A stretch of 64,000 nt of DNA from Promethearchaeota archaeon (lineage in GTDB: Archaea; Asgardarchaeota; Heimdallarchaeia; Hodarchaeales; Hodarchaeaceae), in NCBI GenBank assembly GCA_048939265.1, contig JBHLPQ010000001.1:6726-70725 (forward strand), written 5' to 3'. The notes beneath the pieces were generated by a model, which had not been told where the DNA came from, searched no databases, and saw only the letters and a program-made list of their open reading frames with translations. Positions 784 through 25,894 of the stretch are shown here, piece by piece. A program made the translations under genes and the position numbers. How positions within the stretch are numbered: the first letter of the stretch is position 1; each line of letters begins with the position of its first letter.

Positions 784-789
784 GAGAGT

Positions 790-2648: not shown

Positions 2649-2676
2649 GGGAACATCAGTTTCATTACTTGGAGGA

Positions 2677-2778: not shown

Positions 2779-2790
2779 ATGATAATTGGC

Positions 2791-2821
2791 TATTTAAACA
2801 ATTTTTAGTGTGAATTTAAAT
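2791..2821 (-). promoter_or_regulatory. Candidate archaeal TATA/BRE region upstream of tRNA-Gly (TTTAAATA and ATTTAAAT motifs)
   Basis: AT-rich box-A-like motifs 13-43 nt upstream of the tRNA 5' end on the transcribed strand. The spacing of the nearer one is too short for a TSS outside the tRNA, so the distal one is more likely. Confidence 0.3.
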
Positions 2822-2866
2822 GAAATGTCCTGCAACGTGGAAAAAATAAAATCAAAAACATAATCT

Positions 2867-3610
2867 TTAACGAAACACGTCAGTTTGACGATCCCTAATC
2901 AAAATTGTAGTAGAAATATCATCTTCTTCATATTCCACTCCCCGTACAATAATAACTGGTGTTCCCTCGTCAGATTGCCCCATCACAAGACCTGCTGCCG
3001 CAGCTACTTCATCCGCTTTAGCAACAACAGTTGATTTTAATTCATATCCAAAAAGATCTTTTCGTCCCCTTAAATCGTCAATAGGATTAATTCCTGCAAC
3101 TCCAATGGCAACGTTGACCGTACCTGCTCTGAGAGGGCGACCAAAGGTATCAGAAATAATAACAGCAACATTTATCCCTAATTCTTTGAATATTCGGTCT
3201 CTTATCCGTTTTGCTGATAAATCAGGATCATTAGGAAGACCAATAACAGTTTCACCTGGAGTGTTGGATTTATCTACGCCACTATTAGCACAAATAAAGC
3301 CGTGTTTAGTCGCAGTTATCAGGACATGCTCATTCATACGAATGATCTCACTACTCTCTTGAAGAATGACCTCAATTTTTCTTGGATCCTTATCTTGAAG
3401 CTCCGCAACAGATAACGCGAAGGAACTTGGATTAATTTCAGCAAGGTTGTATACTTTATTCTCCGCTTTGGAAACAATGGTATGAGCAATGACAAGGATA
3501 TCGTCATTTTCCAATGTAATTTTCCGTAATTCTGTAACCAAGATACTCTCGAGATCATCTCCTGGATTAATAAGAGGAAAGTCTCGAAGAGGAAAAATTG
3601 TGACTAACAT
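2867..3610 (-). CDS. cofE: CofE-family protein (coenzyme F420-0:gamma-glutamyl ligase-like)
   Basis: N-terminal PLINPGDDLESIL, ICANSGVDKSN, ISDTFGRPLRAGTVNVAIG and GQSDEGTPVIIVRG blocks match remembered CofE signatures. Length of about 247 aa fits. Confidence 0.7.
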   Translation of the reverse strand: MLVTIFPLRDFPLINPGDDLESILVTELRKITLENDDILVIAHTIVSKAENKVYNLAEINPSSFALSVAELQDKDPRKIEVILQESSEIIRMNEHVLITATKHGFICANSGVDKSNTPGETVIGLPNDPDLSAKRIRDRIFKELGINVAVIISDTFGRPLRAGTVNVAIGVAGINPIDDLRGRKDLFGYELKSTVVAKADEVAAAAGLVMGQSDEGTPVIIVRGVEYEEDDISTTILIRDRQTDVFR

Positions 3611-3753
3611 CGACTTTAAAATCCTAAAAAGAGTATTTAAGCCTCAGACCGCTCATCGTTCATCATTAATAACTTCTGTTCCCTAAGCTGTCATCATTGG
3701 CAGGACTGATATTAAATTAAATCTCAGATTAATATATATTTGTAGCTTACAAA

Positions 3754-4518
3754 CTAAATTCCAAACTCTGAGGGGCGAGTTTTTACCTGTTCTGTTAGAT
3801 CTTGTAACAATCGTCGTACTTTCTCGGTTTGCGTAGTATTCCCCACTTTGTGGTATTTTTCGTGAGCTTTTGCAAGGAGATCGATTACTTCCTTAACATT
3901 TTCTCGGGCACTTATTAATGCTCTTGCTCGTTGATATAGTGCATGGGCCTCATATCGTGTTGGATCTTCTCGTCCTAATTTGAACTCCTCGACTGCTTTC
4001 TCCAAATAATATGCCTTATCAAAATTTGAATCCATCGCTGCTGCTCTTTGTACAAATGAGCGAGCCCGAGCTCGGGCTGCTTCCATTTCTAGACCCGTTG
4101 TTTGATAAAGAGCAGCTGCAGATTCATATAAACGTGCTGATTCGATAAATTCCCCTTCTTTGGCTTTAACTTTAGCAAATTCTCCTTGAGTTTGAGCTTG
4201 AATGGTTCTAGCTTGTTTTGCTTCTTCAGAAAACCCCTCTGTTGAGAATTTAACATTCGCTTTTCCAAAACATCGGATTGCATCTAGAAGATTCATATCA
4301 AGCATATTTATGTAACCCTTGGCACAAAATTGATACGCTTCAGCTCTCTGACTGAGTTTCTTCTGATCTCCACCTTTGAATAACTTTGAGGCCTTTTTAA
4401 AACTCTCTAAAGCCTCGTCATAGCGCTGAGTTTCATAAAAAACTATTCCTTGATCGAATTCCTCTTGTGCTTTTTTGGTTTTACTTCCTTTGAATAATGG
4501 TATACCCGTCAACTCCAT
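3754..4518 (-). CDS. Hypothetical all-alpha, TPR-like/helical repeat protein
   Basis: 254 aa, Ala/Lys/Glu-rich with repeated amphipathic helices (EALESFKKASKLF, KAYYLEKAVEEFK, YEAHALYQRARAL). No catalytic motif recognised. Confidence 0.4.
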   Translation of the reverse strand: MELTGIPLFKGSKTKKAQEEFDQGIVFYETQRYDEALESFKKASKLFKGGDQKKLSQRAEAYQFCAKGYINMLDMNLLDAIRCFGKANVKFSTEGFSEEAKQARTIQAQTQGEFAKVKAKEGEFIESARLYESAAALYQTTGLEMEAARARARSFVQRAAAMDSNFDKAYYLEKAVEEFKLGREDPTRYEAHALYQRARALISARENVKEVIDLLAKAHEKYHKVGNTTQTEKVRRLLQDLTEQVKTRPSEFGI

Positions 4519-10339: not shown

Positions 10340-10867
10340 ATGAGAATTGTGATAGGAATGAAAGAACTAAATTATTTTGCCCAAGTATTAAATCTATTTG
10401 ATCTACTTCTACCTATTATTGTTGTTGGTGGTTTAATTATTGGAATTGTGTTGTTCTATTTTCGACGACAAATTATGGAGACCATCGGAGGAGGAGGAGT
10501 AAAGAAAACTATTCTGGAACAAGAAATTGAACAACGCCTTGTTCAAATTCGACAATTGGCACGACAACAAATGTTTAGAGAAGCATCGATCCTCATGTGG
10601 CAAACGATGACTCTTGCATCTGAAGGTTTTCTTGGTATTGGTCGTACACCGAATGAATCCGCACGTCAACTCGGTGTTAGACTGATGAATCGTGGGGATT
10701 TAGATCCGAGCGCTATTAATGCTATTGTGATGGTTTTTGAAAAAGCCCGATACAGTCAAGCTCCTCTTACAACTCAGGAATTCAAAGATGGATTGTCGGG
10801 ACTTCATCAATTCCTTCAAACAGCCACATCTGTTGGTGAGATAGCTGAAGTAGCTGAAGAGTATTGA
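10340..10867 (+). CDS. DUF4129-like membrane-anchored protein (MoxR-module accessory)
   Basis: N-terminal TM helix followed by a GRTPNESARQL....VFEKARYSQAPLTTQEF pattern typical of DUF4129 (TPxE ... ARY..p.t..e). Confidence 0.5.
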   Translation: MRIVIGMKELNYFAQVLNLFDLLLPIIVVGGLIIGIVLFYFRRQIMETIGGGGVKKTILEQEIEQRLVQIRQLARQQMFREASILMWQTMTLASEGFLGIGRTPNESARQLGVRLMNRGDLDPSAINAIVMVFEKARYSQAPLTTQEFKDGLSGLHQFLQTATSVGEIAEVAEEY

Positions 10868-10919
10868 TCATTTACATATAACTGATGAGATTAATATAGT
10901 AAAGACTAAGTGAGACTTT

Positions 10920-12668
10920 ATGGTAGATCGAACAACCTCTGCACTGATCATCCTAGCCATTTTCATTAGTTATCCTTTTGCAGCAGCATTCTTACTGGGT
11001 ATAGTAGCTGTAGATAGAAACACAACTAATTTTTCCATTTATAATGAAGGTTGGAATGGAGCTAGTGCATTCAAGAAAATGTTCGAAGAATATGGCGACG
11101 AAGGGGAAGGGGGTCAAATCTCTACTATTGTTGGCAGTAATAATGTTCTAAATCGTTTAAATGCTTCTGAATCCAACAGTTCTCTCATCATATTAGGCCC
11201 AGCAGTCCATTATGATTTTTCCGAAGCATTAGCTATTGTTTTTTACGCTATTAAGGGAGGACGAGTTTTAATCGCAGATGACTTTGGCACAGCTAATGAT
11301 ATCCTTGGAGTTCTTTCTATCTTTCTAGGAATGATGGCACAGATAGATTTAGGTGGTTTGGGGTACAGTGATGCGACAGGAGGGACAAATATCTTTGGAT
11401 TTGAAACAACTACAGACAATACTACAACTACAACCACCACTGAGTCATGTGATCTCGGTGCAAATTTCCCAATTGCTGGAGTTGCCATTAATGGGAGCCT
11501 ACTAGTTGACCAAGGTAGCTACAAACCTCCTACCCCTCTCACGCCGATATTTCATTCTCCTGTTTCAGTTACTCAAGGTACCAGCTATCGAATGCCAGCC
11601 CCTTGGGTCACTGAATTTACAGAGGGGCTCAGTGGTAATGGTGTTGTGGGAAATTTTGCTTCAATCATAACAATGAAGGTTCGTTATCCAGTTAACGCGA
11701 CAGAGGACCCCATTACAGGAGAATGCCAAGTCTCTTATGAAACTAAATGGGTGCCAATGGGAGAGTTTCCAGCTTCTCTATCCAACGCGTTTTCTGATGT
11801 AAAAAGCCAAGTCTCTAATTTAAATATCCCTGATTTTTCCTTCAGTTTTCAAATCGCTGTCCTCTATAGCAGTAGTGAGGCATGGTTAGAATCTGATATT
11901 GAATTAGCAAAGCAAGATGTTAATAAAATAGGCCCAAATGTGACTGAATGGGGAAACCCAACCATTGGATTTCCAGTTTTTGTTTATTTTCCTTTTCCTC
12001 TAGGAGGAGACTTAACCATCTGTTCAGATCCCTCCATTTTCATCAATGAGTATATTGATGATGAAAGAGAAGAGTATGATTCAACTTACGATAATAGAGC
12101 TTTTGCTCAAAATGTAGTCGATAAAATGATGACAAGTCGGCCAGGTCAAACAATCATATTTGATGAAGGACACCTTGCAAATCACCCTTTATCACCAACC
12201 CTCCCACTTAGTTTATATCTGAAATTTCTCGATATGATTTCAATGTTTCCCCTCTTTGCGTGGGCTTTACCAATTGGAGCAATTATATTATCAAGACGAT
12301 TTATGCCGAAAAGAACACAAGCTAAACCTCTTCTGTTAACCCGTGTTGAACGATATTATGGGCGTAGCTTTTTCGCAGTTAAAATGCGTTGGTTCCTTGA
12401 ATATCAACAATATTCGCGCGGTTTAGAACTGATATATCGCCGTTTAAGGCGTAATTTAATTCGCCGCTACAATCCAGAGGTTGACCTTACCCCTGAAGTG
12501 GCCGCTACTTACTTAGCAAACGAATTTCCCGATCGTTTCACTCATAGAGGCATTACTGATGGGTTAATTGCAATCGAACGGATTATTGATAGTCGAGCTG
12601 CGATTTCTGAACAAGAATTTTTAGATCACTATCTATTCCTAAAAAACATTGGAGTAGAGATAACTTAA
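10920..12668 (+). CDS. DUF4350-like (GldG/GATase1-like) extracytoplasmic domain protein with a Thr-rich linker, a TM helix and a C-terminal DUF4129-like segment
   Basis: N-terminal signal/TM, a SLIILGPAVHYDFSEALAIVFYAIKGGRVLIADDFG block resembling DUF4350, a TTTTTTTT run, the TM MFPLFAWALPIGAIILS, and a C-terminal LTPEVAATYL...ISEQEF motif. Confidence 0.5.
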   Translation: MVDRTTSALIILAIFISYPFAAAFLLGIVAVDRNTTNFSIYNEGWNGASAFKKMFEEYGDEGEGGQISTIVGSNNVLNRLNASESNSSLIILGPAVHYDFSEALAIVFYAIKGGRVLIADDFGTANDILGVLSIFLGMMAQIDLGGLGYSDATGGTNIFGFETTTDNTTTTTTTESCDLGANFPIAGVAINGSLLVDQGSYKPPTPLTPIFHSPVSVTQGTSYRMPAPWVTEFTEGLSGNGVVGNFASIITMKVRYPVNATEDPITGECQVSYETKWVPMGEFPASLSNAFSDVKSQVSNLNIPDFSFSFQIAVLYSSSEAWLESDIELAKQDVNKIGPNVTEWGNPTIGFPVFVYFPFPLGGDLTICSDPSIFINEYIDDEREEYDSTYDNRAFAQNVVDKMMTSRPGQTIIFDEGHLANHPLSPTLPLSLYLKFLDMISMFPLFAWALPIGAIILSRRFMPKRTQAKPLLLTRVERYYGRSFFAVKMRWFLEYQQYSRGLELIYRRLRRNLIRRYNPEVDLTPEVAATYLANEFPDRFTHRGITDGLIAIERIIDSRAAISEQEFLDHYLFLKNIGVEIT

Positions 12669-12710
12669 TCTTAATTAAACCGTACTGATGATCTTTAAGA
12701 TAAATTAGAA

Positions 12711-13778
12711 GTGAAAGAAATGAGCAAAACCGATTTGAAAGGGAAAGATTTCACTAGTGATGAATTAACTTATGAAATGCTGGATGTTCACGATATAGCT
12801 CGTGCATATCAACAAATAATGGGAGAAATCCGAAAAGTATACATCGGAAGGACTGAAATCTTCGAAATGCTTTGGATTGCTATGTTAACGGGTAAGCATG
12901 TCTACCTCGAAGGCGTTCCAGGTATAGGGAAGACTTACATGGCAGAAACCTTTTCTAAAGTCCTTGGAACTGAATATAAACGAATTCAATTCACGCCAGA
13001 TATGCTTCCTTCAGATATCGTTGGAACAAATATTTTTAATCCTAAAACAGGAACCTTCCGACTAAAGAAGGGCCCCATTTTTGGTAATGTTATTCTCGCA
13101 GATGAAATTAACCGAGCTCCTCCGAAAACACAATCTGCAATGCTTGAAGCTATGGCTGAACGACAAGTTTCAATCGAAGGGGAAACGCACAAGCTCGAAC
13201 AACCATTTGTTGTTATGGCGACAGCAAACCCTGTTGAACAAGAAGGAACATATCCCCTCCCTGAAGCTCAATTAGACCGTTTTATGATTAAAGTTATCGT
13301 TCACCATTCTTCTCCTGACGATGAATTACGAATTATTAAATTTAAAAACGAACCCGTCCCCGCGACACTCAACCAAGTTGTTTCTCCTCAAACAATTGTA
13401 GCTATGATGGATGTGGTAAAAAGAGTCTATGTTTGTCCTGAAATCCTAGAAATGATACGTGATATCACTGTTTCAACTCGAACTGACCCACGGTTAGTCT
13501 TGGGATGTTCTCCTCGTGGGAGTGAAAGTCTTTTGTTGTCAGGAAAAGCTAGAGCTGCTATACATGGTCGTGAATATGTCATTCCAGATGATATTCTTTT
13601 AATGATACCTCATATAGTACATCATCGCCTTATACTCAAACCTGAAGCTGAATTAGAAGGAATCACGCAGATTCGTATTGCTGAAGATGTTCGAGATGGA
13701 TTGGTGCTACCAGTAGACCCAATAGAAGAAGAAGCAGTCTATGAAGAGTATTATGAAGAAGAAGTATACGAAGAATAG
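12711..13778 (+). CDS. moxR: MoxR-family AAA+ ATPase
   Basis: Walker A GVPGIGKT, Walker B ILADEINRAPPKTQSAMLEAM, and AAA_3/MoxR architecture with a C-terminal lid. Acidic C-terminal tail. Confidence 0.9.
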   Translation: MKEMSKTDLKGKDFTSDELTYEMLDVHDIARAYQQIMGEIRKVYIGRTEIFEMLWIAMLTGKHVYLEGVPGIGKTYMAETFSKVLGTEYKRIQFTPDMLPSDIVGTNIFNPKTGTFRLKKGPIFGNVILADEINRAPPKTQSAMLEAMAERQVSIEGETHKLEQPFVVMATANPVEQEGTYPLPEAQLDRFMIKVIVHHSSPDDELRIIKFKNEPVPATLNQVVSPQTIVAMMDVVKRVYVCPEILEMIRDITVSTRTDPRLVLGCSPRGSESLLLSGKARAAIHGREYVIPDDILLMIPHIVHHRLILKPEAELEGITQIRIAEDVRDGLVLPVDPIEEEAVYEEYYEEEVYEE

Positions 13779-13806
13779 GAAGAGTTTTTACTAGGTGTAA
13801 ATGTGA

Positions 13807-15279
13807 ATGCTTTCATCCCGAGGAGCCTTCATTGCAATTGGAGGTATATTATTAATTTCTGTAGGATTAAGTGCCAAAGGAATCGGTACTGTAGCTACAA
13901 TGTTCCCCATTCTCTCAGGTGAAGAAGGATGGGAAGCTACTGAAGAACCAGCTCCAACAAACGGAAACACAACTTCAATGGCAGACTTATTCAGACCGTT
14001 TGAAATTCTGAATAGTTCTCCGATAGTAGATTATGGCATGTTCCTTGGTACTTTATTGTTGTTAGCAAGTATCATTGGTCTACCCTTTTTCCGTGTGTCA
14101 GCTAACGCATCACTTATACGAGTTACACGTACCGTGGATCGAGAGAAAGCTTTTGCCGGGGAGTATGTCCATGTGACGGTTAAAATTGAAAACACTGGAC
14201 GCCGCCGAATGGACTTTTTGGAGATCTATGATGCCATTCCTGATATGTTTGAAATCGCCTTAGGTGAAAACTTCATTATTACTCAGCTTGAAGGTAGAGA
14301 GACTAAGGAATTCTCCTATATCGTTCAAGTAAGTACACGTGGAGTTTATCGCATTGGACCAGTGAAGGTCATCATTCATGATAGATTAGGATTTTATTTT
14401 GAAGAAGACATAAGGCACTTCTATACAGAAATTCTTTGTTATCCTTCGTACGAAGATATTAGGCGGATGGAAGCATTGAGTAAACGAAGACAACAAGGAA
14501 AGATGTTTGGGGCTCATAAAACAAAACAGAAAGGAATGGGAGACGATTTTCACGCATTAGCACGATACTACCCTGGTGCCCCCTTCAAATCTTTAGATTG
14601 GAAAGCTTTCAGCCGTACAGGGGAACTCATGGTTAGAGAGTTTGAATCAGAGAAGAATATTCGGATGGTTGTCTTTCTAGACCATAGTGGCAGTATGGGA
14701 GCTGGACTTCCTTTTAATACGAAACTAGACTTCGCTATCCGCTCTGTTATGCTAGTCATGAAGATGGCAGAAGAACGTCAAGATTTATTCGGAATGGTAA
14801 CATTTGCTGACCGACCCACATCTTTTCTTCCACCAGGAGGAGGAAAAGCAATGTTCTTTCAATTACTGGAAATTCTAGCTCTCGTAGAACCTCAAGGTCG
14901 ATCGGATCCTTTAGCTGCAGTAGATTTTGTGATGCAGAGGGTACCTCGTGCCTCATTTTATGTTTTTCTGACTGATCTTGAATCCTCTGATTCAGAAATT
15001 TTCACTGAAGCTGCAAAGCGCGCCCGTGCAACTAAGAACAACATAACTGTAATTTCCCCTTTCGGGCCGCTTTTTGAAACCAAGCTCAGTGATCTAACAG
15101 CCACAGAACGAGCTATAGCAGAAGCAATTTTCGAGGAGTATCTTGGATACAGAAAACAAGTAGAAGATAGATTGAGAGGATTGGGTGTCGAAATCATAAA
15201 TGTTGGCCCTGATGATATGCTTCCCAATGTAATTAAGACATATATGGAAGGAAAACAAGCAGGAAAAGGAACTGTGTAA
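13807..15279 (+). CDS. DUF58 protein with a von Willebrand factor A (MIDAS) domain
   Basis: Two N-terminal TM helices, the DUF58 core, and a MIDAS motif VFLDHSGSM (DxSxS). Canonical partner of MoxR. Confidence 0.8.
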   Translation: MLSSRGAFIAIGGILLISVGLSAKGIGTVATMFPILSGEEGWEATEEPAPTNGNTTSMADLFRPFEILNSSPIVDYGMFLGTLLLLASIIGLPFFRVSANASLIRVTRTVDREKAFAGEYVHVTVKIENTGRRRMDFLEIYDAIPDMFEIALGENFIITQLEGRETKEFSYIVQVSTRGVYRIGPVKVIIHDRLGFYFEEDIRHFYTEILCYPSYEDIRRMEALSKRRQQGKMFGAHKTKQKGMGDDFHALARYYPGAPFKSLDWKAFSRTGELMVREFESEKNIRMVVFLDHSGSMGAGLPFNTKLDFAIRSVMLVMKMAEERQDLFGMVTFADRPTSFLPPGGGKAMFFQLLEILALVEPQGRSDPLAAVDFVMQRVPRASFYVFLTDLESSDSEIFTEAAKRARATKNNITVISPFGPLFETKLSDLTATERAIAEAIFEEYLGYRKQVEDRLRGLGVEIINVGPDDMLPNVIKTYMEGKQAGKGTV

Positions 15280-15282
15280 AAT

Positions 15283-16680
15283 ATGCCCGCAGGACAAGCA
15301 ACAGCTCATTTCTTTCGGATTTTATATATCACAATATTTGTGATTTCTGCGGTCTTGGTTCTTGTCAGTATTGATCCTTCTATGTTTGATTTCGCACAGG
15401 TCTTCAATATCTTAGAATATATTATGTTGATAGTGCAAGTGCTAATCCAGGCTTTCGCTGGTGTAGCATTAAGCTTAGTATCTATGATTGCCTCAATTAT
15501 AAAGGATATTCCTTTCATCGGGGATATCCTTCCCTTCGGGAATGTTCAATCTAATGGATATAGTAGTATGGTCAATGCTCTTACAGCCATTACCAATCCT
15601 GAAAATGGTTTTTTCCCACATTCCAGCGCAACAACGATCACTTCATTTATTGAAGATTTTGGGAACTTTGTGGGAGCTACTACAATCCTGATTCTTCTTC
15701 CCGTTGCGTTTCTCTCAGGAATTGGATTTCTTCGTGAGGGAGACACGAAACTAGCGATATATTCATTTTTAGGGTTTCAACTTATCGTAATAATTGCCAT
15801 TTTTACAGAAAAGATCAATATATCCACAACTATCAATGCAGATGTATCAACTTCAACATTTTTCTTGACGTACATAATTGAAAACTTAATAGCAATGATC
15901 TTGAGTCCAATTTTCACCCTTGGATTTATATTATATCTTCTATTAGAAATCGCTTTTCAAACCTCCTATACTTTGAATATTATTGAACCCATGACTGAAC
16001 GAGAAAAAAGAATCCAAGGACACCTAAAGAGAATTCGCACTTTTGTCCCCTTATCGGAAGAAGAAAAGGGAAAAGAGCAATCTATTCAGAGCGTACAATC
16101 AAAAAAGTTTGATCTGCTTGCAGCGAGTTATCTACGAGAGATGGTCGAAAGACGTGTCTTTAAGAAAGGAGAAGTAATGCGGGATGCAAAATCAACCATG
16201 CGTTTACAGTCATATCTCGCAAGTTTAAATCAAAGTGATCCTGAAACTGATTTAAAATTAGCAGCAAAAACTGCTCAACCTGATATTTCAGCACTACTTC
16301 GACATTTTGTCCCAGCAATGGTTTTCCGTATCATTGCAGTCACAATTCTGGCTTATATTATTATTTCGCCAGAAATTCTTCTTAATCCTTTAGTAGGAAG
16401 TTCGTTTCCAGCACTTTTGCACAGTCTGGAACTCGGCCAACCTGAATTTCAAACAATTGCCATTCTCAATATAGTATTACTTTTTATTCTCATCAGTGTA
16501 ATTCTTCATTTCTTTTCTGGTGGAAGAACTAGTAAAATCGTCGAAAGAGTTGTTCAACAGATTGATACACTTGTAGACTTTGATAGGGCTCCAACACCAG
16601 TTGCAGCACCAGCTGCCGATGAACCATCTGAAGAAGAGGAAGAGGAACCTCCTTCCGATGAGGAAGAAGAAATTTCCTAA
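15283..16680 (+). CDS. Polytopic membrane protein with a C-terminal acidic (EEEEEEPPSDEEEE) tail, last gene of the MoxR module
   Basis: Multiple hydrophobic segments and a low-complexity acidic C-terminus. It starts 4 nt after the DUF58 stop. Confidence 0.45.
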   Translation: MPAGQATAHFFRILYITIFVISAVLVLVSIDPSMFDFAQVFNILEYIMLIVQVLIQAFAGVALSLVSMIASIIKDIPFIGDILPFGNVQSNGYSSMVNALTAITNPENGFFPHSSATTITSFIEDFGNFVGATTILILLPVAFLSGIGFLREGDTKLAIYSFLGFQLIVIIAIFTEKINISTTINADVSTSTFFLTYIIENLIAMILSPIFTLGFILYLLLEIAFQTSYTLNIIEPMTEREKRIQGHLKRIRTFVPLSEEEKGKEQSIQSVQSKKFDLLAASYLREMVERRVFKKGEVMRDAKSTMRLQSYLASLNQSDPETDLKLAAKTAQPDISALLRHFVPAMVFRIIAVTILAYIIISPEILLNPLVGSSFPALLHSLELGQPEFQTIAILNIVLLFILISVILHFFSGGRTSKIVERVVQQIDTLVDFDRAPTPVAAPAADEPSEEEEEEPPSDEEEEIS

Positions 16681-16705
16681 TTCTATTATTCAAGGAATTA
16701 ATAAA

Positions 16706-17239
16706 ATGTCAAGATTGGATCCTGAAAGCACTGAAGCAAGAAAAGCGATATCTAAGGAAGTACCTGGCTATAATCGCTATGAGAAACAATCAGATAGAAA
16801 ATCGAGTGAAACAGCAATACGAGATTATCTTGAATCACGTCTTTCAAGTTGTTTGGATGATATAAAAAAGATTCAAGAAGCTGCTTTAATGAGTCAAATG
16901 ATAACAACCTGGTCTGACCTTGATCGCTTAGTCTCCAGTTTTTCAGATATTCGACACATGATAAAACAGACTGAATATGGAATTAGTACCTTTTTTGACT
17001 CCAATGTAATCAAAGAATTTGATCTAAGTTATCTTTATACATTAGAAAATACTATTATCAACATCATAAGTCGGTTGGATGATAAAATAGGAAGTTTTGA
17101 TGAATCTATTGAAAGTGGTATGCTTTCGGACAGCAGCCGTTTAACCAATGAAATCTTAGATGATTTATCTGCTATTAGGGATGCATGGGAAGAACGGAGG
17201 AAATTAATTTCTGATTTTCAGAAATTAGGTCTAGTTTAA
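16706..17239 (+). CDS. Hypothetical cytoplasmic protein (about 177 aa). Start placed at the internal ATG (MSRLDPEST...) to avoid a 100-nt overlap with the upstream gene.
   Basis: The ORF 16580..17239 overlaps 15283..16680. The downstream ATG gives a non-overlapping gene with a plausible upstream AT-rich/GGAG region. The start choice is an inference. Confidence 0.4.
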   Translation: MSRLDPESTEARKAISKEVPGYNRYEKQSDRKSSETAIRDYLESRLSSCLDDIKKIQEAALMSQMITTWSDLDRLVSSFSDIRHMIKQTEYGISTFFDSNVIKEFDLSYLYTLENTIINIISRLDDKIGSFDESIESGMLSDSSRLTNEILDDLSAIRDAWEERRKLISDFQKLGLV

Positions 17240-17484
17240 TTTGTAATTTATAGTGTAACCTTTACGGATTTGTATCCTTATTTTCTTCAAATCAACATCT
17301 TTCATTAGCTAAGTAGAAGTGAGTATGCATAGATAGAGTCTCTGGGCACCATCATATAGCCACATTATGAGCAGTTCAAACTTCAAATATTTATAGCTCA
17401 CGATTTTTTCTTCCAACAAGCCTTAGATAGAATAAGCTTTGGTTTTTTTCCAAACCTGGCTCAAAACTGATAGGTGGTTTTTGT

Positions 17485-18762
17485 TTGAGCGAAGAAAATG
17501 TAATTAATCGCTATATCTTAATAATACCAGCCGTAATAATCCAATTATGTCTAGGTTCGATTTATGCTTGGTCAAAATTCCAAACAGCTTTGGTTAGTGA
17601 AACTGGAGTTTATGCTTGGGATAAACTTCTCACTCAACTCCCATTTACCGTTGGTTTGGCTTCTTTTGCTGGATTCATGATTTTTGCAGGAAGATGGCAA
17701 GATAGGGCTGGACCGAAAAGGGTCGCTACAATTGGAGGGATCCTTCTAGGGATTGGGTGGTTTCTTGCAGGTTTTGTCGATATTATTGCAGGTGAAAATG
17801 AATTACTAGGATTTCTTTGGATTGCGTTGACTTATGGCTTAATAGGTGGTGCAGGCATTGGTTTTGCTTATGTTTGTCCCATTGCTGCTTTGGTTAAATG
17901 GTTCCCTGATCTTAAAGGATTAATTACTGGGATCGCAGTCGCAGGATTTGGTCTTGGCGCATTTTTCCTTCTATTCATTGAAGAATTTTTGATAGAAGAT
18001 ATCAGCAATGGTCAAATCAGTTTAGCCTTCTGGGTTCTGGGTATCCTTTTCCTGGTTCTCGTAGTAGGGTCAGCTCAAATACTACAAAATCCTCCTGAAG
18101 GGTGGAAACCGCTAGGATATACTCCAAAACCTAGTCAAGTTACATCCGTAGGAGATAAGAGAGATTTCGAGCCAACAGAGATGGTTCAAACCCCTCAATT
18201 CTGGCTTCTATGGCTGATGTTTATTCTGGCAGCGGCAGCTGGATTAATGACCATCGGAAATGTGACAACATTTACTAAAGATCAACTAATCTTAGGAGGA
18301 ATCTCTCCAGAGGATGCAAGTGTCCTAGCAGTGACAACAGGATCGTTTCTGTCAATTTTCAATTCCGCGGGAAGGATTGTATGGGGTGCTGCTTCAGACA
18401 GACTTGGAAGGATCATTACAATGATGATAATGTTTGGCACCCTTGGAGTTGCTATGTTTTTCTTCGGAATACAGCAAGAATTTCTCTTATTATTGATAGG
18501 AGCATGCTTAATAGGCTTCTGCTTTGGTGGTAATTTCGCTTTATTTCCCTCCGCAACAGATGACTACTTCGGTACAAAAAACCTTGGACGAAATTATGGT
18601 CTGGTTTTTACGGCTTATGGTGTTGCAGGAGCTTTAGGACCTTTCATTGCTGGAGTACTTGCATACAACGAAGCTTTCCCCATTCTCGGAATTCTGGCCT
18701 TCTTGGCTGCAGCTCTAGCTATCGTCACAGAATATTTGGCCCGAAGAAAAGCCGTTGTGTGA
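17485..18762 (+). CDS. MFS transporter (12-TM, oxalate/formate antiporter-like family), TTG start
   Basis: 425 aa, two 6-TM halves, a GxxxDRxGRR-like loop (GAASDRLGRI) between TM8 and TM9 and an MFS loop motif between TM2 and TM3. Confidence 0.8.
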   Translation: MSEENVINRYILIIPAVIIQLCLGSIYAWSKFQTALVSETGVYAWDKLLTQLPFTVGLASFAGFMIFAGRWQDRAGPKRVATIGGILLGIGWFLAGFVDIIAGENELLGFLWIALTYGLIGGAGIGFAYVCPIAALVKWFPDLKGLITGIAVAGFGLGAFFLLFIEEFLIEDISNGQISLAFWVLGILFLVLVVGSAQILQNPPEGWKPLGYTPKPSQVTSVGDKRDFEPTEMVQTPQFWLLWLMFILAAAAGLMTIGNVTTFTKDQLILGGISPEDASVLAVTTGSFLSIFNSAGRIVWGAASDRLGRIITMMIMFGTLGVAMFFFGIQQEFLLLLIGACLIGFCFGGNFALFPSATDDYFGTKNLGRNYGLVFTAYGVAGALGPFIAGVLAYNEAFPILGILAFLAAALAIVTEYLARRKAVV

Positions 18763-18769
18763 AGAAATT

Positions 18770-18806
18770 ACGTCTCTTAAAGACGTCAATTTTTTCTTTT
18801 TTTTTA
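18770..18806 (+). terminator. Hairpin (ACGTCTC-TTAA-AGACGT) followed by a long T-run
   Basis: Perfect 7-bp inverted repeat immediately after the MFS stop, followed by TTTTTTCTTTTTTTTT. Archaeal terminators are oligo-T tracts. Confidence 0.45.
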
Positions 18807-19008
18807 ATTATTTTTACTTATTAAACGTAATTAGTCCACAGTTATTGTGTCTTAACTTTTTAATTAGACCACCTCCCAAGAATTGGATAAGCTAAAACTC
18901 AATTACAATAAGAGAAACAAACTTCTTATTTTTTTGATAAAAGCTTTGAAATCGGATTATAAAGCTATAATTACCGTTGAATTCAAGTTTAGTTTTATAT
19001 GACGATTA

Positions 19009-21066
19009 ATGAACAAAAAAATGGGCGATAATATGTCTGAGATGACAGAAACAGAGAAAGAAAAATCAAAAAAATATTATCCTCTTCCTGAGCTGGCGGA
19101 AAATGCCAGAATCGCTAATATGGATGCATACTTCGAAAAATGGAAATATTCAATCGATAATATGGAAGAATTTTGGGCTGAAGAAGCAAAAAAGCTAGAT
19201 TGGATAACCCCTTATGAAAAAGTGTGGGTTCCCCCAACCGGAGAGAAAGATGAGTTTGTAGGCAAATGGTTTGCTGGAGGAAAACTAAATACCTGTTATA
19301 ATTGCCTTGATCGATGGGTTGAGAAGGGATATGCAGACGAGGTAGCCTTAATTTGGATGGGTGAAGATGATACAGTGAAAGAATACAGCTACAAATCACT
19401 CCTGATAGAAGTAAATAAAGCAGCGAATGCATTGAAGTCTTTAGGGGTTAAAAAAGGAGACCGTGTATGTATTTGGTTACCAATGGTTGATACACTCGCT
19501 ATCGTAATGCTAGCATGTGCACGGATTGGTGCTATCCATTCTATTGTATTTGGTGGATTCTCAGCAGAATCAGTGAAAGATCGAATTGATGATTCCGAAT
19601 GTAAAATCTTGGTTGTTGCGGACGAAGTACGGCGGGCAGGAAAAAACCGGCCAATGAAAGATAATCTTCGGGGTATCATTGAAACTTGTGATTCAATTGA
19701 AAAAGTAGCAGTCATCAAGCTTACCGGGGGCGATGTTTATGAATACAAAAAGGATGTAGATTTCTTAGCACTCATGAAGGAGCAATCCTCAGAATGTGAT
19801 TATGAAATAATGGATGCAGAGGATCCACTTTTCATTCTCTATACAAGTGGGACAACAGGAAAACCCAAAGGTGTTGTTCATACCACAGCTGGTTATTTAG
19901 TTTATGGAGTATCAACAAACTATTATGTCTGGGACTATTCATGCTTACTTGACTTGAAAGGAACAACCCCAGCAACACGAGATGTCTGGTATTGCACTGC
20001 TGACATTGGTTGGATAACTGGTCATACACAAATCATCTATGCACCGTTATCGTTAGGAGCTATTTCCATTATGTATGAAGGAGTTCCTACATACCCACAC
20101 CAAGGAAGATTTTGGGAGATCTGTGAGAAGTTCGGTGTCACTCACTTCTATACTGCTCCAACTGCAATCCGAGCATTAAAGAAATTCGGGGATGAACATG
20201 TCACAAAATGGGATTTGTCTAAGTTGAAAATGTTGGGAACAGTCGGAGAAGTATGCAATTGGCCCGAATGGCGTTGGTATTGGGAAATTGTAGGAAATGG
20301 CACAAAGGAAGATAAGCCTATTGGCCGTCCAATAGTAGATAGTTATTGGCAAACTGAAACTGGTTCTTATATGATGGTGAATCTCGGTGCAATCACCCCT
20401 ATGAAGCCTGGAAGTTGTACCTATCCCTTCTTCGGGATTAATCCTGTATTATTGGATGATGATGGGAAAAAAGTTTCCCAACCCAATATCCAAGCCTATT
20501 TTGCTTATGATATGCCTTGGCCAGGATTGATGAGAACAGTCTGGGGTGACCATGAGAGATTTGTAAACACTTATCTCACTCAATTTGAAGGTCATTACTT
20601 TACAGGAGATTATGCACTGATTGATGAAGAAGGGTACTATTTCATACTTGGCCGATCAGATGACGTTATTAAAGTTTCTGGTCACCGTCTTGGTTCCGCT
20701 GAGGTTGAAGCAGCTGTTAATTCTCATCCTAAAGTAGCTGAAAGTGCAGTTATCCCCTATCCTCACCCAGTCAAAGGTTCAACTATCTTTGCTTATATAA
20801 CACTTATGGAAGGCGCCGAACCATCTGATGAACTAAAGAAAGATATTCAAAAGCACGTTCGAACAGTAGCAGGGCCAGCTGTTTATCCGGAGATCATCAT
20901 GTTTGCTGAAGCAGTTCCTAAGACACGATCGGGAAAGATTATGCGCCGAGTCCTGAAAGCTGTGGCTGAAAAGAGAGATATTGGTAATGTTATGACTTTA
21001 GCCAACCCAGAAGTCGTTGAAGAACTTATTGCCCGCAGGAAAATGATGGGTGAAATTAAGTTCTAA
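19009..21066 (+). CDS. acs: Acetyl-CoA synthetase (AMP-forming) or a closely related short-chain acyl-CoA synthetase
   Basis: YTSGTTGKPKGV AMP-binding motif, WYCTADIGWITGH, YWQTETG, GDY...DEEGYY..GRSDDVIKVSGHRLG and the C-terminal PKTRSGKIMRR motif. Length 685 aa. Confidence 0.9.
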   Translation: MNKKMGDNMSEMTETEKEKSKKYYPLPELAENARIANMDAYFEKWKYSIDNMEEFWAEEAKKLDWITPYEKVWVPPTGEKDEFVGKWFAGGKLNTCYNCLDRWVEKGYADEVALIWMGEDDTVKEYSYKSLLIEVNKAANALKSLGVKKGDRVCIWLPMVDTLAIVMLACARIGAIHSIVFGGFSAESVKDRIDDSECKILVVADEVRRAGKNRPMKDNLRGIIETCDSIEKVAVIKLTGGDVYEYKKDVDFLALMKEQSSECDYEIMDAEDPLFILYTSGTTGKPKGVVHTTAGYLVYGVSTNYYVWDYSCLLDLKGTTPATRDVWYCTADIGWITGHTQIIYAPLSLGAISIMYEGVPTYPHQGRFWEICEKFGVTHFYTAPTAIRALKKFGDEHVTKWDLSKLKMLGTVGEVCNWPEWRWYWEIVGNGTKEDKPIGRPIVDSYWQTETGSYMMVNLGAITPMKPGSCTYPFFGINPVLLDDDGKKVSQPNIQAYFAYDMPWPGLMRTVWGDHERFVNTYLTQFEGHYFTGDYALIDEEGYYFILGRSDDVIKVSGHRLGSAEVEAAVNSHPKVAESAVIPYPHPVKGSTIFAYITLMEGAEPSDELKKDIQKHVRTVAGPAVYPEIIMFAEAVPKTRSGKIMRRVLKAVAEKRDIGNVMTLANPEVVEELIARRKMMGEIKF

Positions 21067-21141: not shown

Positions 21142-21432
21142 CTATTTGGTCTCCCCTAGAGCTTCCAATATCTGTTTAGATGATATGTTTCTGAGCCGGA
21201 AGATCTTTCTCGAGCTAGTTTGACCAGACTCTAGGATTACATCAGTATGGAATTTCTTTCGGAACATTTTTAGAAGCTTTTTATTGGCTTTTCCCTTAAT
21301 AGGAGGTTCCTTTATAGTTACAATGAGTTTTTCAGAATTAACAATGAACTGGTCTTTGTTTCGAAGAGTTTTAACTTTAGCTGTTACTAAAGTATCTTTA
21401 TCAACTTCTTTCAACCAGGTCAAGCTCGGCAC
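21142..21432 (-). CDS. DUF167 / YggU-family small protein
   Basis: VKTLRNKDQFI....KLIVTIKEPPIKGKANKKLLKMF...VILESGQTSSRKIFRL matches the YggU consensus (v.v.p.a....i.....l.v.v.app.dGkAN..l...la........v.i..G..sr.K.v.i). Confidence 0.6.
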   Translation of the reverse strand: MPSLTWLKEVDKDTLVTAKVKTLRNKDQFIVNSEKLIVTIKEPPIKGKANKKLLKMFRKKFHTDVILESGQTSSRKIFRLRNISSKQILEALGETK

Positions 21433-23384
21433 TTTAGTCCATCTTCTGAAATCTCAGTTATTTCTGAAAATAAAATTTCTTGTAATGAAAATCGTTCTTT
21501 TATAACCATAAGTGCCTTCTTTAACGTCAGTTGTTCTTCCATCCATATGAAGTTCAAAAAATATCGTGCTAAATTGCTTGGCCACAGGCTCTTTTCGAAA
21601 GAAGTATCCAATGCCAAGGAAATCCGACGTCTTAAACGGTTAACATATTGTTCGGATGATTTTTTCCCTAAACGTTTGATTATCTCAATTGGATTTTTTG
21701 AAGTCCAAAGGATGGAAAAGTTTCCCTGGTAGACGGAAAAACCATATATTAATCCAGTTTCTTCATCAGCCCTATATAATGGTTTGCCGATGAGATATCG
21801 GAAAGTTTCTGGGATCGAATGAAAGTACACTCCAATTTTTGCGTGAATTTTATCTGAGAAATTGAATGCTGCCGCAGGAAGAACTGAATAGAATGAAGCA
21901 GTTATCTCATGAGGGGAGATTAGGAGACGCTCCCGGTTACACATAAGCCACAAATTCTCTGCAGAGAAAGCTTCTCCTTCTCCTATTTGAAGCTCTTTTG
22001 TAAAAGTTTGTCGGAGTTCAGCTAACGTTTCCTTTCCCAATCCTTTTAAATATAAATCCAATAAATATGAAGGAGGCACTTTCCGTTCAATGACTAAACA
22101 TTGACCGAAAGGAGTTTCATGCATAATTCCAGCAATTAACCCAAAATCAGAACCAGCCATCCCGATAACTTTCTGATTAATGTGAGTTTGTTGAGAAATC
22201 GCCTCTCCTTTTGCGGGAATCCATGCTGGAATACTAATTTTTTTCAAATCTTCATTTTTCACTATTGGAAGTTCAAAAGAAGATGTATCAATTAATTCTG
22301 ACTCAATGAACCAGGCTTTCGTTAATTGGGCTTTTGCAGGGACTACTTCAAGTCCAAGGAGACTAATCCACTGGTTAACAAATGATGGTTGTAGAGCAAG
22401 TTCTTCAGGAATTTTTACCGCGTTAGCGATTTTATTCTGAATTTGTTGTGTAGTGATTGAATTTAAATCGAGACCGAGTTGATTAAAAATATCTCCATAT
22501 CCTTTCTTTAATGTGGACATTGAAAAAGGTTTTTCTTTGACAATAGGTAGAAAAATTGATTTATTTACAACAATAGGTGGGCGAAACAACCCAAGGGGGG
22601 TTTTATTAGGATCGTATGCAACAAATCCAACTAGACCCCATGGAGAGGAAATTCTCTTATCATCTGGCACTTCAATTTGAACTTCAGCAGGAAGCTCCTC
22701 CTCTTGATCTTTTGTTAGCAATGGTAGCTGAAGACTTCGATCCATTGGCTGAATGACTTCATCTAGATTAAAAATGTCTTTTCCAATTTCAGCGATTGGA
22801 TCGATTAAAGATCTTAAGATCTCAAGTTCTACATCATCGAGTTTTTCCCGTCTCTGTGTCAATTCATCCTCTGGAGTTATACCCTCTAAGTATTTTACCC
22901 AAATCTTCTTGAATTCTCTAACTAGGATAGAAATTTCTTCATTGTCCGTAATTTCCAGAAAAGAATCAATAAATTTTTGCATATCAAAGTTTAATGTTTT
23001 TTCCGAGGATTTCATACGAAATATCTTATCCTGTATGCGTAACTGAAGTTTTTTTTGCTTTTTTACTAATCTATTTTGCTCTGTAACCAGATCAGTAAGA
23101 ATTTTTTTCGATTCGTTCTTAGATAGTACTTTTGCCTCCCAAGCTTTGATTGTTTCTTTTATCTTGGCATCAATCTCGGTCAGGGATTGATTAAGACGTT
23201 CTAATTCATTATCAGTCTTTTTTAATCCAAAAATATCCAGAAATGGTGTTAACTGATTTTCAATGTTTAAGGAGCTTCTCATCCCATCAAGGATCTGAAC
23301 ATACTGATTTTCGTCAATCAGGTCTTTTTGACGAAGAGAAATGAGAAATTTCTGAAACTTAAAATGAGAAGACAATTCAACCAC
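21420..23384 (-). CDS. Large conserved hypothetical protein (654 aa). The N-terminal ~250 aa are coiled-coil; the C-terminal globular region is of unknown family.
   Basis: Long uninterrupted ORF with coding-like composition and no motif I can assign. Its stop overlaps the DUF167 start by 13 nt (likely operon). Confidence 0.5.
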   Translation of the reverse strand: MVELSSHFKFQKFLISLRQKDLIDENQYVQILDGMRSSLNIENQLTPFLDIFGLKKTDNELERLNQSLTEIDAKIKETIKAWEAKVLSKNESKKILTDLVTEQNRLVKKQKKLQLRIQDKIFRMKSSEKTLNFDMQKFIDSFLEITDNEEISILVREFKKIWVKYLEGITPEDELTQRREKLDDVELEILRSLIDPIAEIGKDIFNLDEVIQPMDRSLQLPLLTKDQEEELPAEVQIEVPDDKRISSPWGLVGFVAYDPNKTPLGLFRPPIVVNKSIFLPIVKEKPFSMSTLKKGYGDIFNQLGLDLNSITTQQIQNKIANAVKIPEELALQPSFVNQWISLLGLEVVPAKAQLTKAWFIESELIDTSSFELPIVKNEDLKKISIPAWIPAKGEAISQQTHINQKVIGMAGSDFGLIAGIMHETPFGQCLVIERKVPPSYLLDLYLKGLGKETLAELRQTFTKELQIGEGEAFSAENLWLMCNRERLLISPHEITASFYSVLPAAAFNFSDKIHAKIGVYFHSIPETFRYLIGKPLYRADEETGLIYGFSVYQGNFSILWTSKNPIEIIKRLGKKSSEQYVNRLRRRISLALDTSFEKSLWPSNLARYFLNFIWMEEQLTLKKALMVIKERFSLQEILFSEITEISEDGLKCRA

Positions 23385-24670: not shown

Positions 24671-25894
24671 ATGTCTGATGAAAACATTCTAGTCAGAGTC
24701 AAACAGATTCTGACACAAAAATATTGTACTTCTGCTGATGAAACTGTGGAGACAATTGGTCAATGTGATAACCTAGGGGAAGCATTAGTTTCAACAGATT
24801 TTCCCGAAAAAGATTTTTATATTCGCATCCTCCAACACCTCCGACTTTTCTACAATTCCGAGTTTATGATCTACAGTGATCGAATCAAAAAAGCCCTTTC
24901 ATCATACCAAAAATTACAGACTGGAATACTAGAAACTCAAACGCAATATCCCGATCTATATTCACAACTCCAGTATGACATTGATCGGCTTGTTTTACGT
25001 ATAGATGCTCGAATCCAAGAGACCCGCGCTCGGATAGCTGAAGCTGAAAATGATATGGTTCAAGCAGATGTATTATATGTTGAGACAATTAATCGTTATA
25101 ATAATGAATTAACGCTAGAGCAGAATAAAAGCGATTATGACCATTATTTCAATTCTTTAGGGATTATCTTCTTCATCACAGGTCACCTATACCGATTGCG
25201 AGGAAAAAATTCTTCTAACGCTGAAGATCTATACCTTGCTTTAAGAAATTTGAAAAAAGCACAGTTTCTAGGGCATTCTGACAGTGAAATTTTGAATCAG
25301 ACCTTTGAGGATATTAAGACTATAACCGTAGGAAAATTAGAACACCAAGCAGAATTGCTCTTTACTCAAGGACTGACAAATTCAGAAGCAGATCAATTTG
25401 ATATAGCAAAAGCCAATTATCAGAAGTCAGCTCAACTGTATCATTCATTAAACAAGCTTCAGAAGAGCGTGGAGTATGAACTCCAAGAACAAATTCAAAA
25501 TTCTTCATATTATGAAGCAACTGCGAAAGCATTTATGATACAAGATAACAATGAGCAAGCTGCCCTTCAATTCTCCTATGCAAACCAAACTTTACAAAAA
25601 GTCCTTCAAAAGCTACCCAGTGATTCCCTGAGACAGTCCTTTCAACCCCAAATCAGATACTTTCAAGCAATGCAGCTATTTTGTCAAGCTGTTACAGAGT
25701 ATGACAACATGAGTCCAGAAGCGATAGACCATTTTACAGAAGCGCGAGAGAAGCTTGAGGAAGCAAAAGAGATGGCTGATGAGAATCAAAATGTTCCATT
25801 ATCCAAAGGTTGTACTGAAGCATTAAACAAACTCGATTCGTATCAAGAAATTGCAGGGATTATGTTCCAAGAAACTGACAGCGATGAGTCTTAA
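24671..25894 (+). CDS. Hypothetical all-alpha protein (407 aa), Gln/Glu/Leu-rich
   Basis: Long ORF with helical repeat-like composition. No enzymatic motif recognised. Confidence 0.4.
   Translation: MSDENILVRVKQILTQKYCTSADETVETIGQCDNLGEALVSTDFPEKDFYIRILQHLRLFYNSEFMIYSDRIKKALSSYQKLQTGILETQTQYPDLYSQLQYDIDRLVLRIDARIQETRARIAEAENDMVQADVLYVETINRYNNELTLEQNKSDYDHYFNSLGIIFFITGHLYRLRGKNSSNAEDLYLALRNLKKAQFLGHSDSEILNQTFEDIKTITVGKLEHQAELLFTQGLTNSEADQFDIAKANYQKSAQLYHSLNKLQKSVEYELQEQIQNSSYYEATAKAFMIQDNNEQAALQFSYANQTLQKVLQKLPSDSLRQSFQPQIRYFQAMQLFCQAVTEYDNMSPEAIDHFTEAREKLEEAKEMADENQNVPLSKGCTEALNKLDSYQEIAGIMFQETDSDES

Follow-up and report, generated by a model that had tools for sequence, protein, structure and literature searches.

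A stretch of 64,000 nucleotides (nt) from a Promethearchaeota archaeon of the order Hodarchaeales (assembly GCA_048939265.1, contig JBHLPQ010000001.1, positions 6,726 to 70,725; this whole stretch is called the window below) carries a gene cluster built around a MoxR-family AAA+ ATPase and its vWA partner, which lies directly behind the gene for a giant surface glycoprotein of 1733 amino acids (aa). An earlier note, made from the letters of the window, had described a block of six co-directional genes at 10340-17239, and inspection of the open reading frames (ORFs) and their translations confirmed six + strand ORFs at these positions (Table 1). The intergenic gaps from ORF1 to ORF6 are 52, 42, 28, 3 and 25 nt in order, while 150 nt separate the end of the giant gene from ORF1. 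The arrangement is not peculiar to the window, and its recurrence across Asgard archaea, with the giant in front, is far beyond chance.

Table 1. The cluster and the giant gene that precedes it, with the basis of each assignment
Feature	Coordinates	Strand	Basis
Giant surface glycoprotein, 1733 aa	4988..10189	+	ORF, translation, topology
ORF1, small single-pass membrane protein with DUF4129, 175 aa	10340..10867	+	Pfam, topology
ORF2, DUF4350 (GldG/GIFT-like, arCOG01314-type) protein, 582 aa	10920..12668	+	Pfam, topology
ORF3, MoxR-family AAA+ ATPase, at most 355 aa	12711..13778	+	Pfam, motifs
ORF4, DUF58/vWA protein, 490 aa	13807..15279	+	Pfam, MIDAS, topology
ORF5, polytopic membrane protein, 465 aa	15283..16680	+	Pfam: no family
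ORF6, small soluble helical-bundle protein, 177 aa	16706..17239	+	Pfam: no family

A scan of one genome per species returned 208 relatives, and 80 loci were kept and inspected. These are nearly all from Asgard archaea, together with a few metagenome-assembled genomes (MAGs) of Bathyarchaeia, Thermoproteota and Nitrososphaerota. For the locus survey, the six-frame ORFs of all loci were compared with profiles of the six families, and about 83 loci enter the counts. The order giant, DUF4129, DUF4350, MoxR, DUF58, ORF5 family, first visible in six contigs carrying homologs, was found in essentially all untruncated loci and is shared by Hod-, Heimdall-, Thor-, Hermod-, Odin-, Baldr- and Wukongarchaeia and a few TACK MAGs. 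Conservation of the gene order in related genomes, which the earlier note had proposed as a check, was seen in about 80 loci, with DUF4350 proteins that are 24-77% identical to that of the window. Median intergenic gaps across the surveyed loci are 1-42 nt, and these short gaps, together with the frequent overlap of the DUF58 and ORF5 genes, fit co-transcription and translational coupling. Beyond the module the neighbours are housekeeping genes, which differ between lineages.

The four domain assignments made in the earlier note, DUF4129 in ORF1, DUF4350 in ORF2, AAA_3 in ORF3 and DUF58 with a vWA domain in ORF4, all lie above the Pfam cut-offs. ORF3 matched AAA_3 (E = 1.3e-64, 216.4 bits vs a cut-off of 27) and AAA_lid_2 (E = 1.4e-17, 63.6 bits vs a cut-off of 22.7), and its translation carries an intact Walker A motif, GVPGIGKT, and an intact Walker B motif, ILADEI, the Walker B pattern being present in 73 of 74 MoxR homologs. 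It also matched the bpMoxR model at 49 bits, the AAA_3 score being far above this. The GTG start at 12711 gives the longest form of the protein, 355 aa, and since homologs span 319-355 aa, the true start may lie a few codons downstream. ORF3 is predicted to be cytoplasmic and is 64-97% identical to its Hodarchaeales-type relatives. Its vWA partner adjoins it, with the DUF58 gene 28 nt downstream in the window and a median gap of 42 nt in 73 loci.

ORF4 matched DUF58 (PF01882; E = 1.2e-22, 80.6 bits vs a cut-off of 23.4) and VWA_2 (E = 9e-7, 29.9 bits vs a cut-off of 27). The metal ion-dependent adhesion site (MIDAS) of the vWA domain, given as DHSGSM in the earlier note, was read as an intact DHSGS in the translation, and the DxSxS pattern is kept in 71 of 72 homologs. 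Two membrane helices are predicted at the N-terminus, at about 8-26 and at 76-94, and the outside loop of 45 aa between them contains two sequons. Beyond the helices follow an Ig-like domain, for which sub-threshold matches to BatD (20.2 bits vs 24.1) and to DUF11 were obtained, and then the vWA domain. As the two N-terminal helices enclose a sequon-bearing outside loop, both domains are predicted to be cytoplasmic, on the same side of the membrane as MoxR. ORF4 is 62-96% identical to its relatives, a degree of conservation on a par with that of MoxR.

The first two genes of the block encode membrane proteins. ORF1 matched DUF4129 (PF13559; E = 1.9e-6, 28.2 bits vs a cut-off of 24.8) at residues 87-149, in a C-terminal part that is predicted to be cytoplasmic and follows a membrane helix at 22-40, and it is 44-80% identical to its relatives. 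ORF2 had been read in the earlier note as a protein with both DUF4350 and DUF4129. The former assignment held (PF14258; 35.4 bits vs a cut-off of 30.4), with a match covering only the N-terminal part; DUF4350 was matched by 22 of 22 family members and the ABC_transp_aux/GldG-like family by 17 of the 22. The latter assignment had to be dropped, as none of 15 diverse tails of the family matched Pfam DUF4129 at E <= 1 and an hhalign comparison with the ORF1 family gave E = 0.024 at a probability of 2%. ORF2 is instead predicted to begin with a signal or anchor, to expose an ectodomain of about 410 aa, which contains 8 sequons and an inserted poly-Thr stretch, and to continue through a membrane helix at 439-457 into a conserved cytoplasmic helical tail of 125 aa. 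It is 47-78% identical to its Hodarchaeales-type relatives, and in the protein search its homologs came from Asgard MAGs only (Hodarchaeales, Heimdall-, Thor-, Odin- and Hermodarchaeota), with 100% identity to one protein from a Promethearchaeota MAG. Taken over the cluster, the predicted topology puts the DUF4129 domain, the tail of the DUF4350 protein and the Ig-like and vWA domains of the DUF58 protein on the cytoplasmic side, where MoxR is, and the sequon-rich portions of the cluster proteins outside.

ORF5, the polytopic membrane protein, had been counted in the earlier note as an extra gene. Its family was, however, found in 67 of the approximately 83 loci, where the gap from DUF58 has a median of 3 nt and is at most 100 nt in 66 of the 67, with frequent overlap; because it is kept in place after DUF58 across loci, ORF5 is a core component of the module rather than an addition to it. 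It has about seven predicted membrane helices, a strongly conserved charged loop at about 225-335, which probably faces the cytoplasm, and an acidic C-terminal tail of poly-Glu; this tail and the poly-Thr of ORF2 had both been pointed out before and are present. Identity to relatives is 39-86%. Pfam gave no match for the divergent homologs from Thor, Heimdall, Baldr and TACK loci, and ORF5 founds an Asgard-wide family for which neither Pfam nor NCBIfam has a model. The family is a small one, its profile finding only 106 clusters among 1.84 billion representative proteins, and its named distant members, all of them devoid of Pfam domains, come from Hel-, Frey/Jord- and Njordarchaeia.

The last gene, ORF6, was first listed from a TTG at 16580, as a product of 219 aa that overlaps ORF5 by 100 nt. 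All of its 60+ homologs are 177 aa long, and the start was therefore set at the ATG at 16706. Of the small cytoplasmic protein put forward in the earlier note, the solubility and the position at the end of the block stand, and the start was corrected. Apart from a few other loci, ORF6 is seen in Hodarchaeales-type loci only, which makes 20-22 loci altogether; it is 70-92% identical among its carriers, with 70-90% identity in the part-by-part comparison with the window. Two names for the protein were considered and rejected. The NCBIfam model LIMLP_15305, of a Leptospira family, which was all that NCBIfam added for the cluster, reached 20 bits vs a cut-off of 210, and the sole paper naming the LIMLP_15305 locus is silent on its function; no Pfam gas-vesicle family was matched by the protein, one homolog of which bears the name 'gas vesicle protein' at JGI.

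Additional genes were observed within or next to the cluster in individual loci. In a Hermodarchaeota locus (L004) a histone-fold gene on the opposite strand, 11932-12138 (-), lies between the DUF4350 and MoxR genes, and an extra protein of 388 aa with an IFT52_GIFT/GldG-like domain (E = 8e-17) is encoded at 16978-18144 (+), between the ORF5 and ORF6 homologs. In L023 the DUF4350 gene is separated from the MoxR gene by two large inserted ORFs, of 438 and 1500 aa. Directly after the ORF5 homolog, one Heimdall group (L005 15490-16557 (+), L030-L039) has a gene for an actin-like protein of about 355 aa with ALP_N and MreB-like_C, and Thor-type loci (L063 15131-16099 (+), L081 15115-16089 (+) and others) regularly have one for a DHH/DHHA1 phosphoesterase of about 322 aa. 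TnpB genes of the OrfB_IS605/Cas12f1-like kind occur near the cluster in L002 at 2524-3789 (-), L003 at 1-2132 (-) and L006 at 18557-19717 (-). On the Thorarchaeota contig of L006/L078 the DUF58 and ORF5-family genes are each split in two ORFs (12442-13765, 13627-15005), which may mean that the reading frame is shifted, that the sequence contains an error or that the module is decaying.

The giant protein of the window is predicted to begin with a signal or anchor. It carries 50 N-X-S/T sequons, a Thr/Pro-rich stalk and beta-sandwich (Ig-like) repeats, for which the Pfam Ig matches are sub-threshold only. It ends in a membrane anchor with the Gly-zipper-like motif LAMGGGVGVAALYER and a basic tail of 13 aa. 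The giant is the fastest-evolving part of the locus: compared with the window, identities fall from 62-97% for MoxR and DUF58 to 39-86% for the membrane parts and to 29-46% for the giant. The best-conserved block of the Hodarchaeales giants is the C-terminal anchor, LA[FL]GGG[VI]G[IL]AALYER. That the anchor is the best-kept block of a fast-evolving protein is as expected if it packs against partner membrane proteins.

A positional equivalent of the giant lies upstream in essentially every Asgard locus with sufficient upstream sequence, and in 47 loci its C-terminus carries a membrane anchor fused to DUF4129, which strongly supports the link to the upstream surface protein that had been suggested in the earlier note. 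The separate small DUF4129 protein is found in 56 loci, and all loci with at least 1.5 kb of upstream sequence have either the small or the fused form, except L073 (Nitrososphaerota). In many lineages the DUF4129-fused giants overlap or abut the next gene. The fusions in 47 loci act as a Rosetta stone, tying the giant to the module.

In Thor, Hermod, Baldr and Odin loci and in one Thermoproteota locus the giants are TgpA-like. They are 1177-2269 aa long, with a Transglut_core near 270-400, then Ig-like arrays (CarboxypepD_reg, MG2 and Big_1 in Pfam), an anchor and a C-terminal DUF4129; one of them gave a weak TgpA_N match. This domain order is that of bacterial TgpA, enlarged by a very long Ig insert. 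Heimdallarchaeum has the ends of the TgpA-like giant on two separate large genes, and in another Heimdall group an Ig protein of 813 aa is fused to DUF4129 and there is no separate small DUF4129 gene. A MAFFT alignment indicated that the Cys motif of the transglutaminase is kept in Thermoproteota L086 and is replaced elsewhere, Cys by Pro in Thor and Cys by Ser in Baldr and Odin. When 17 Hodarchaeales giants were compared by hhalign with 15 transglutaminase-bearing N-termini no transglutaminase core was found, and BLASTP of the window giant against a Thor giant gave weak Ig-repeat similarity at most. The Hodarchaeales giants, that of the window among them, carry neither Transglut_core nor DUF4129; this variant of the module has lost the transglutaminase core and the DUF4129 fusion from its giant and has gained the 177-aa protein.

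The core of this module is already known, as the arCOG01314 system and as the MoxR-vWA-TgpA operon, and is of an uncharacterised kind. The earlier note regarded the function of the DUF4129/DUF4350 partners as unknown in any organism; the core had already been the subject of a prediction (PMC5898192) and is co-regulated in mycobacteria (PMC8191103). Makarova, Galperin and Koonin (2015) described arCOG01314 (DUF4350, GldG-like) together with MoxR, an Ig-vWA protein, S-layer-like Ig proteins and small membrane proteins, and labelled it a putative novel secretion or membrane-remodelling system (PMC5898192). Shared with the Asgard module are the DUF4350/GldG-like protein with its large ectodomain and C-terminal membrane helix, MoxR, the Ig-vWA protein of DUF58 type, and the presence nearby of big Ig-like surface proteins and small membrane proteins. 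In contrast, the euryarchaeal and crenarchaeal versions have DUF1616/pfam07760 S-layer-like proteins and small membrane proteins of 2-5 helices, and Pfam found pfam07760 neither in the giant nor in the other cluster proteins of the window. The description of arCOG01314, whose data set held no Asgard archaea, is without DUF4129, the TgpA-like giant, the 465-aa polytopic family and the 177-aa protein.

The second precedent is the three-gene MoxR-vWA-YebA/TgpA transglutaminase-like operon described from bacteria and archaea by Zhang and Aravind (2012), in which bacterial TgpA is encoded beside MoxR and a vWA protein and for which membrane-proximal proteolysis was proposed (PMC3495828). MoxR, the DUF58-type vWA protein and a protein with an anchor and DUF4129 are common to this operon (including P. 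aeruginosa TgpA, PMC3507681) and to the Asgard module, and Asgard relatives of the window locus have Transglut_core and a C-terminal DUF4129 in a single giant protein. The window, in contrast, is without the transglutaminase core and has DUF4129 as a separate protein of 175 aa. Furthermore, the Asgard giants carry 1000-2000 aa of Ig-like arrays, and the Asgard module has two further obligatory parts, the DUF4350 protein and the membrane protein of 465 aa.

Other clusters share smaller subsets of these genes. In Mycobacterium, Rv3689-Rv3695 includes DUF4350 (Rv3691), MoxR2 (Rv3692), DUF58 (Rv3693), a SpoIIM-like protein (Rv3694c) and an RDD protein (Rv3695), and is co-regulated in M. chelonae (PMC8191103). 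It has the DUF4350-MoxR-DUF58 core with membrane proteins at its flanks, but these are SpoIIM-like and RDD proteins rather than the Asgard 465-aa family, and no giant has been reported. The bifidobacterial PFNA cluster comprises a kinase, an FN3 surface protein, MoxR, DUF58 and a transglutaminase (PMC8430577). In the Esr system of an oral actinobacterium, a MoxR-vWA cluster that includes an Ig-repeat surface filament is needed for the response to epibionts, and the filament is retained on the cell by the transglutaminase (bioRxiv 10.64898/2026.09.08.750141). The likeness of Esr and PFNA to the Asgard module is that an Ig- or FN3-repeat surface protein, MoxR, vWA/DUF58 and a transglutaminase stand in one cluster. 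Esr and PFNA alone have Ser/Thr kinases, a phosphatase and FHA proteins, with a beta-propeller sensor head in Esr, and they are without stand-alone DUF4350 or DUF4129 proteins. As for the Bat (BatA-E) operon, Pfam found no TPR protein and no second vWA protein in the cluster, and the BatD match is the sub-threshold one mentioned above. A literature search for Asgard and MoxR together found no relevant paper. What is new here is the Asgard-wide composite, in which a new membrane family joins a TgpA-like giant, DUF4129, DUF4350, MoxR and DUF58.

The loci themselves show which parts there are, how these are predicted to lie in the membrane, that their order is strictly kept from one Asgard lineage to another and that DUF4129 can be fused to the giant. 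By analogy with better known systems, we tentatively propose that a MoxR-vWA engine in the cytoplasm assembles or remodels a giant surface glycoprotein complex, a reading that we regard as possible rather than probable. In the engine a hexamer of the MoxR AAA+ ATPase would work with the DUF58 protein as its membrane-tethered vWA/MIDAS adaptor, both of them cytoplasmic, and the engine would sit beneath a membrane complex formed by the single-pass DUF4129 protein, the GldG-like DUF4350 protein and the Asgard-specific polytopic protein. The MIDAS site of the vWA domain would grip an acidic residue in a tail or loop that a membrane partner exposes to the cytoplasm, and ATP hydrolysis by MoxR would remodel the partner so gripped. 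CbbQ/CbbO, NorQ/NorD and midasin offer analogies for such a grip by a MIDAS site and remodelling by an ATPase. The change in the partner would travel via the membrane helices to the outside, where it could bring about the assembly, anchoring or conformational maturation of the N-glycosylated giant, with the GldG-like ectodomain as the outer partner. We infer the binding partners in this scheme, and likewise an output of surface-protein assembly rather than signalling. A similar prediction was reached independently by comparative genomics for the DUF4350-MoxR-vWA core (PMC5898192). The retention of an actinobacterial Ig-repeat surface protein on the cell by a transglutaminase from a MoxR-vWA cluster also speaks for this reading (bioRxiv 10.64898/2026.09.08.750141).

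Several points weigh against an assembly engine of this kind. The mechanism, as applied to this exact module, is a prediction from genes and comparisons. The 150-nt spacer 3' of the giant gene is AT-rich and could hold a promoter of its own. Pfam found neither Transglut_core nor DUF4129 in the window giant at E <= 0.1, and beyond the Ig-like repeats the protein has no detectable homology to the TgpA-like giants; with a giant devoid of DUF4129 and a spacer of this length, the functional link in Hodarchaeales therefore comes down to position and the conserved anchor. Topology was derived from hydrophobicity, the positive-inside rule and the positions of sequons rather than from a dedicated predictor, and the vWA domain, cytoplasmic by prediction in the window, is placed in a secreted protein in the description of arCOG01314 (PMC5898192). 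Finally, fold searches with ORF5 and ORF6 returned nothing specific.

The same parts could instead serve surface sensing or signalling, with the giant as an extracellular sensor of partners, viruses or surfaces that relays to vWA-MoxR and on to a cytoplasmic output, perhaps the 177-aa protein. Such a system would resemble the MoxR-vWA 'ternary' conflict systems and the Esr pathway. It would agree with the Esr pathway, which pairs an Ig-repeat filament, MoxR, vWA and a transglutaminase and is needed for the epibiont response, with a giant whose divergence far outpaces that of the other parts, with the bpMoxR match of ORF3 and with a conserved soluble protein at the end of the operon. However, neither in the window nor in the relatives does the cluster contain or adjoin a beta-propeller, kinase, phosphatase, FHA, effector or toxin gene, PADLOC defence models matched nothing beyond generic AAA+ similarity, and AAA_3 far outscores bpMoxR. 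Furthermore, the housekeeping neighbours beyond the module are not conserved between lineages, and the 177-aa protein is missing from most of the lineages that bear the module. We consider sensing unlikely as the function of the module. Secretion or translocation, the original proposal for arCOG01314, in which a conduit is built from the 465-aa protein and the other membrane proteins, with the GldG-like ectodomain as an outer scaffold, and MoxR energises export of the giant or of other substrates, appears less likely again. It was predicted by Makarova et al. (2015) from the similarity to GldG and the many membrane and surface components (PMC5898192), and it can draw on the 17 of 22 DUF4350 homologs that match the GldG-like ABC_transp_aux, on a polytopic membrane protein that is a core part and on a giant exported protein that is always adjacent. 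Yet the signal or anchor at the N-terminus of the giant is an ordinary one, for which Sec export would suffice, MoxR ATPases are known as remodelling chaperones rather than translocation motors, the ORF5 model found no channel-like relative in the fold search, and the conserved set contains no ABC transporter or translocase gene.

Metalloenzymes or respiratory complexes are the targets of other MoxR-vWA pairs (NorQ/NorD, the chelatases, RavA/ViaA), and the module might accordingly be a generic maturation factor, for metal-cofactor insertion, an option mentioned in the earlier note, or for respiratory complexes, with the adjacency of the giant incidental. No metalloenzyme or respiratory gene is conserved beside the module, though, every conserved partner is a membrane or surface protein, and both the adjacency of the giant and the DUF4129 fusion recur across Asgard classes, so that this explanation is very improbable. 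Membrane-proximal, ATP-dependent degradation or processing, in which vWA recruits a substrate, MoxR unfolds it and a transglutaminase-like peptidase cleaves it, was the model proposed for the widespread MoxR-vWA-TGL (transglutaminase-like) operon (PMC3495828), and Transglut_core is indeed present in the giants of Thor, Baldr, Odin and Thermoproteota loci. For the window the model is contradicted, since Pfam at E <= 0.1 found no Transglut_core in any protein of its cluster and hhalign found none in the Hodarchaeales giants. In the relatives the catalytic Cys motif is mostly degenerate, being kept only in L086, and the domain belongs to the sequon-rich part of the giants, which is presumably extracellular and thus apart from MoxR in the cytoplasm. 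Of all the explanations weighed here it is the least probable.

A bolder form of the proposed assembly engine would be an Asgard-wide, ATP-driven 'inside-out' machine, in which MoxR-vWA controls the display or conformation of a giant adhesin for syntrophic partners; this we consider improbable. On cultured Hodarchaeales, besides an S-layer, knob-tipped surface filaments of unexplained nature occur where protrusions meet partner cells (bioRxiv 10.1101/2025.02.26.640444), and in these organisms a giant adhesin could contribute to such filaments. With Hodarchaeales in culture and amenable to proteomics and cryo-tomography, the proposed assembly engine is testable in the closest known relatives of eukaryotes: it predicts that the cluster is co-expressed and that the surface placement of the giant depends on the cluster. 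Few prokaryotic operons to which no function has been given are as widespread as the MoxR-vWA-DUF58 clusters that have a transglutaminase, DUF4129 or DUF4350 partner, and the composite seen in the window joins two separate predictions, arCOG01314 and MoxR-vWA-TgpA, on one giant surface protein. If true, the proposal would provide a first function for these DUF families and would identify an Asgard surface component for partner contact. The operon also unites parts of the MoxR ATPase, transglutaminase-like and GldG/GIFT-like kinds, relatives of which have been proposed as prokaryotic sources of, respectively, dynein and midasin, the ciliary TGL proteins, and IFT52 and OST48.

Elsewhere in the window are genes for aspartate/ornithine carbamoyltransferase, F420 ligase and acetyl-CoA synthetase, and a ribosomal-protein operon. 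Given these ordinary metabolic and ribosomal genes, the cluster therefore lies in ordinary chromosome and not on a mobile island. Rfam, tRNA and tandem-repeat scans of the window gave nothing that bears on the cluster.

Some further features of the window were recorded in passing. An ORF of 97 aa at 2355-2648 (-), between the carbamoyltransferase and F420-ligase genes, encodes a product that ends in IHGGAFE; its equivalents in L001 and L002 match Pfam Urm1/ThiS, and it is a ubiquitin-related modifier-like gene with a short extension past Gly-Gly. Neither the 654-aa ORF at 21420-23384 (-) nor the 407-aa ORF at 24671-25894 (+) matched Pfam; as an ORF of 663 aa occupies the same position in L001, the former is a conserved protein of unknown function. 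Two FtsX-like permease proteins, of 963 aa at 27610-30501 (+) and of 955 aa at 33691-36558 (-), are encoded on opposite strands and are probably components of MacB-type ABC systems whose extracytoplasmic domains are big. The gene at 50262-52955 (-) encodes a second large protein of surface type, of 897 aa with DUF2341 and fibronectin type III, which is unconnected to the cluster. At 39667-39722 (+) a borderline Rfam tRNA match (29.1 bits vs a gathering score of 29, model positions 8-63), for which ARAGORN made no call, may represent a tRNA fragment, an intron-bearing tRNA or a split gene. A strong positive AT skew of 0.23-0.30 at 42000-48000 lies over the ribosomal-protein operon (L22, S3, S4e, L5) and is accounted for by the purine-rich, highly expressed genes there.

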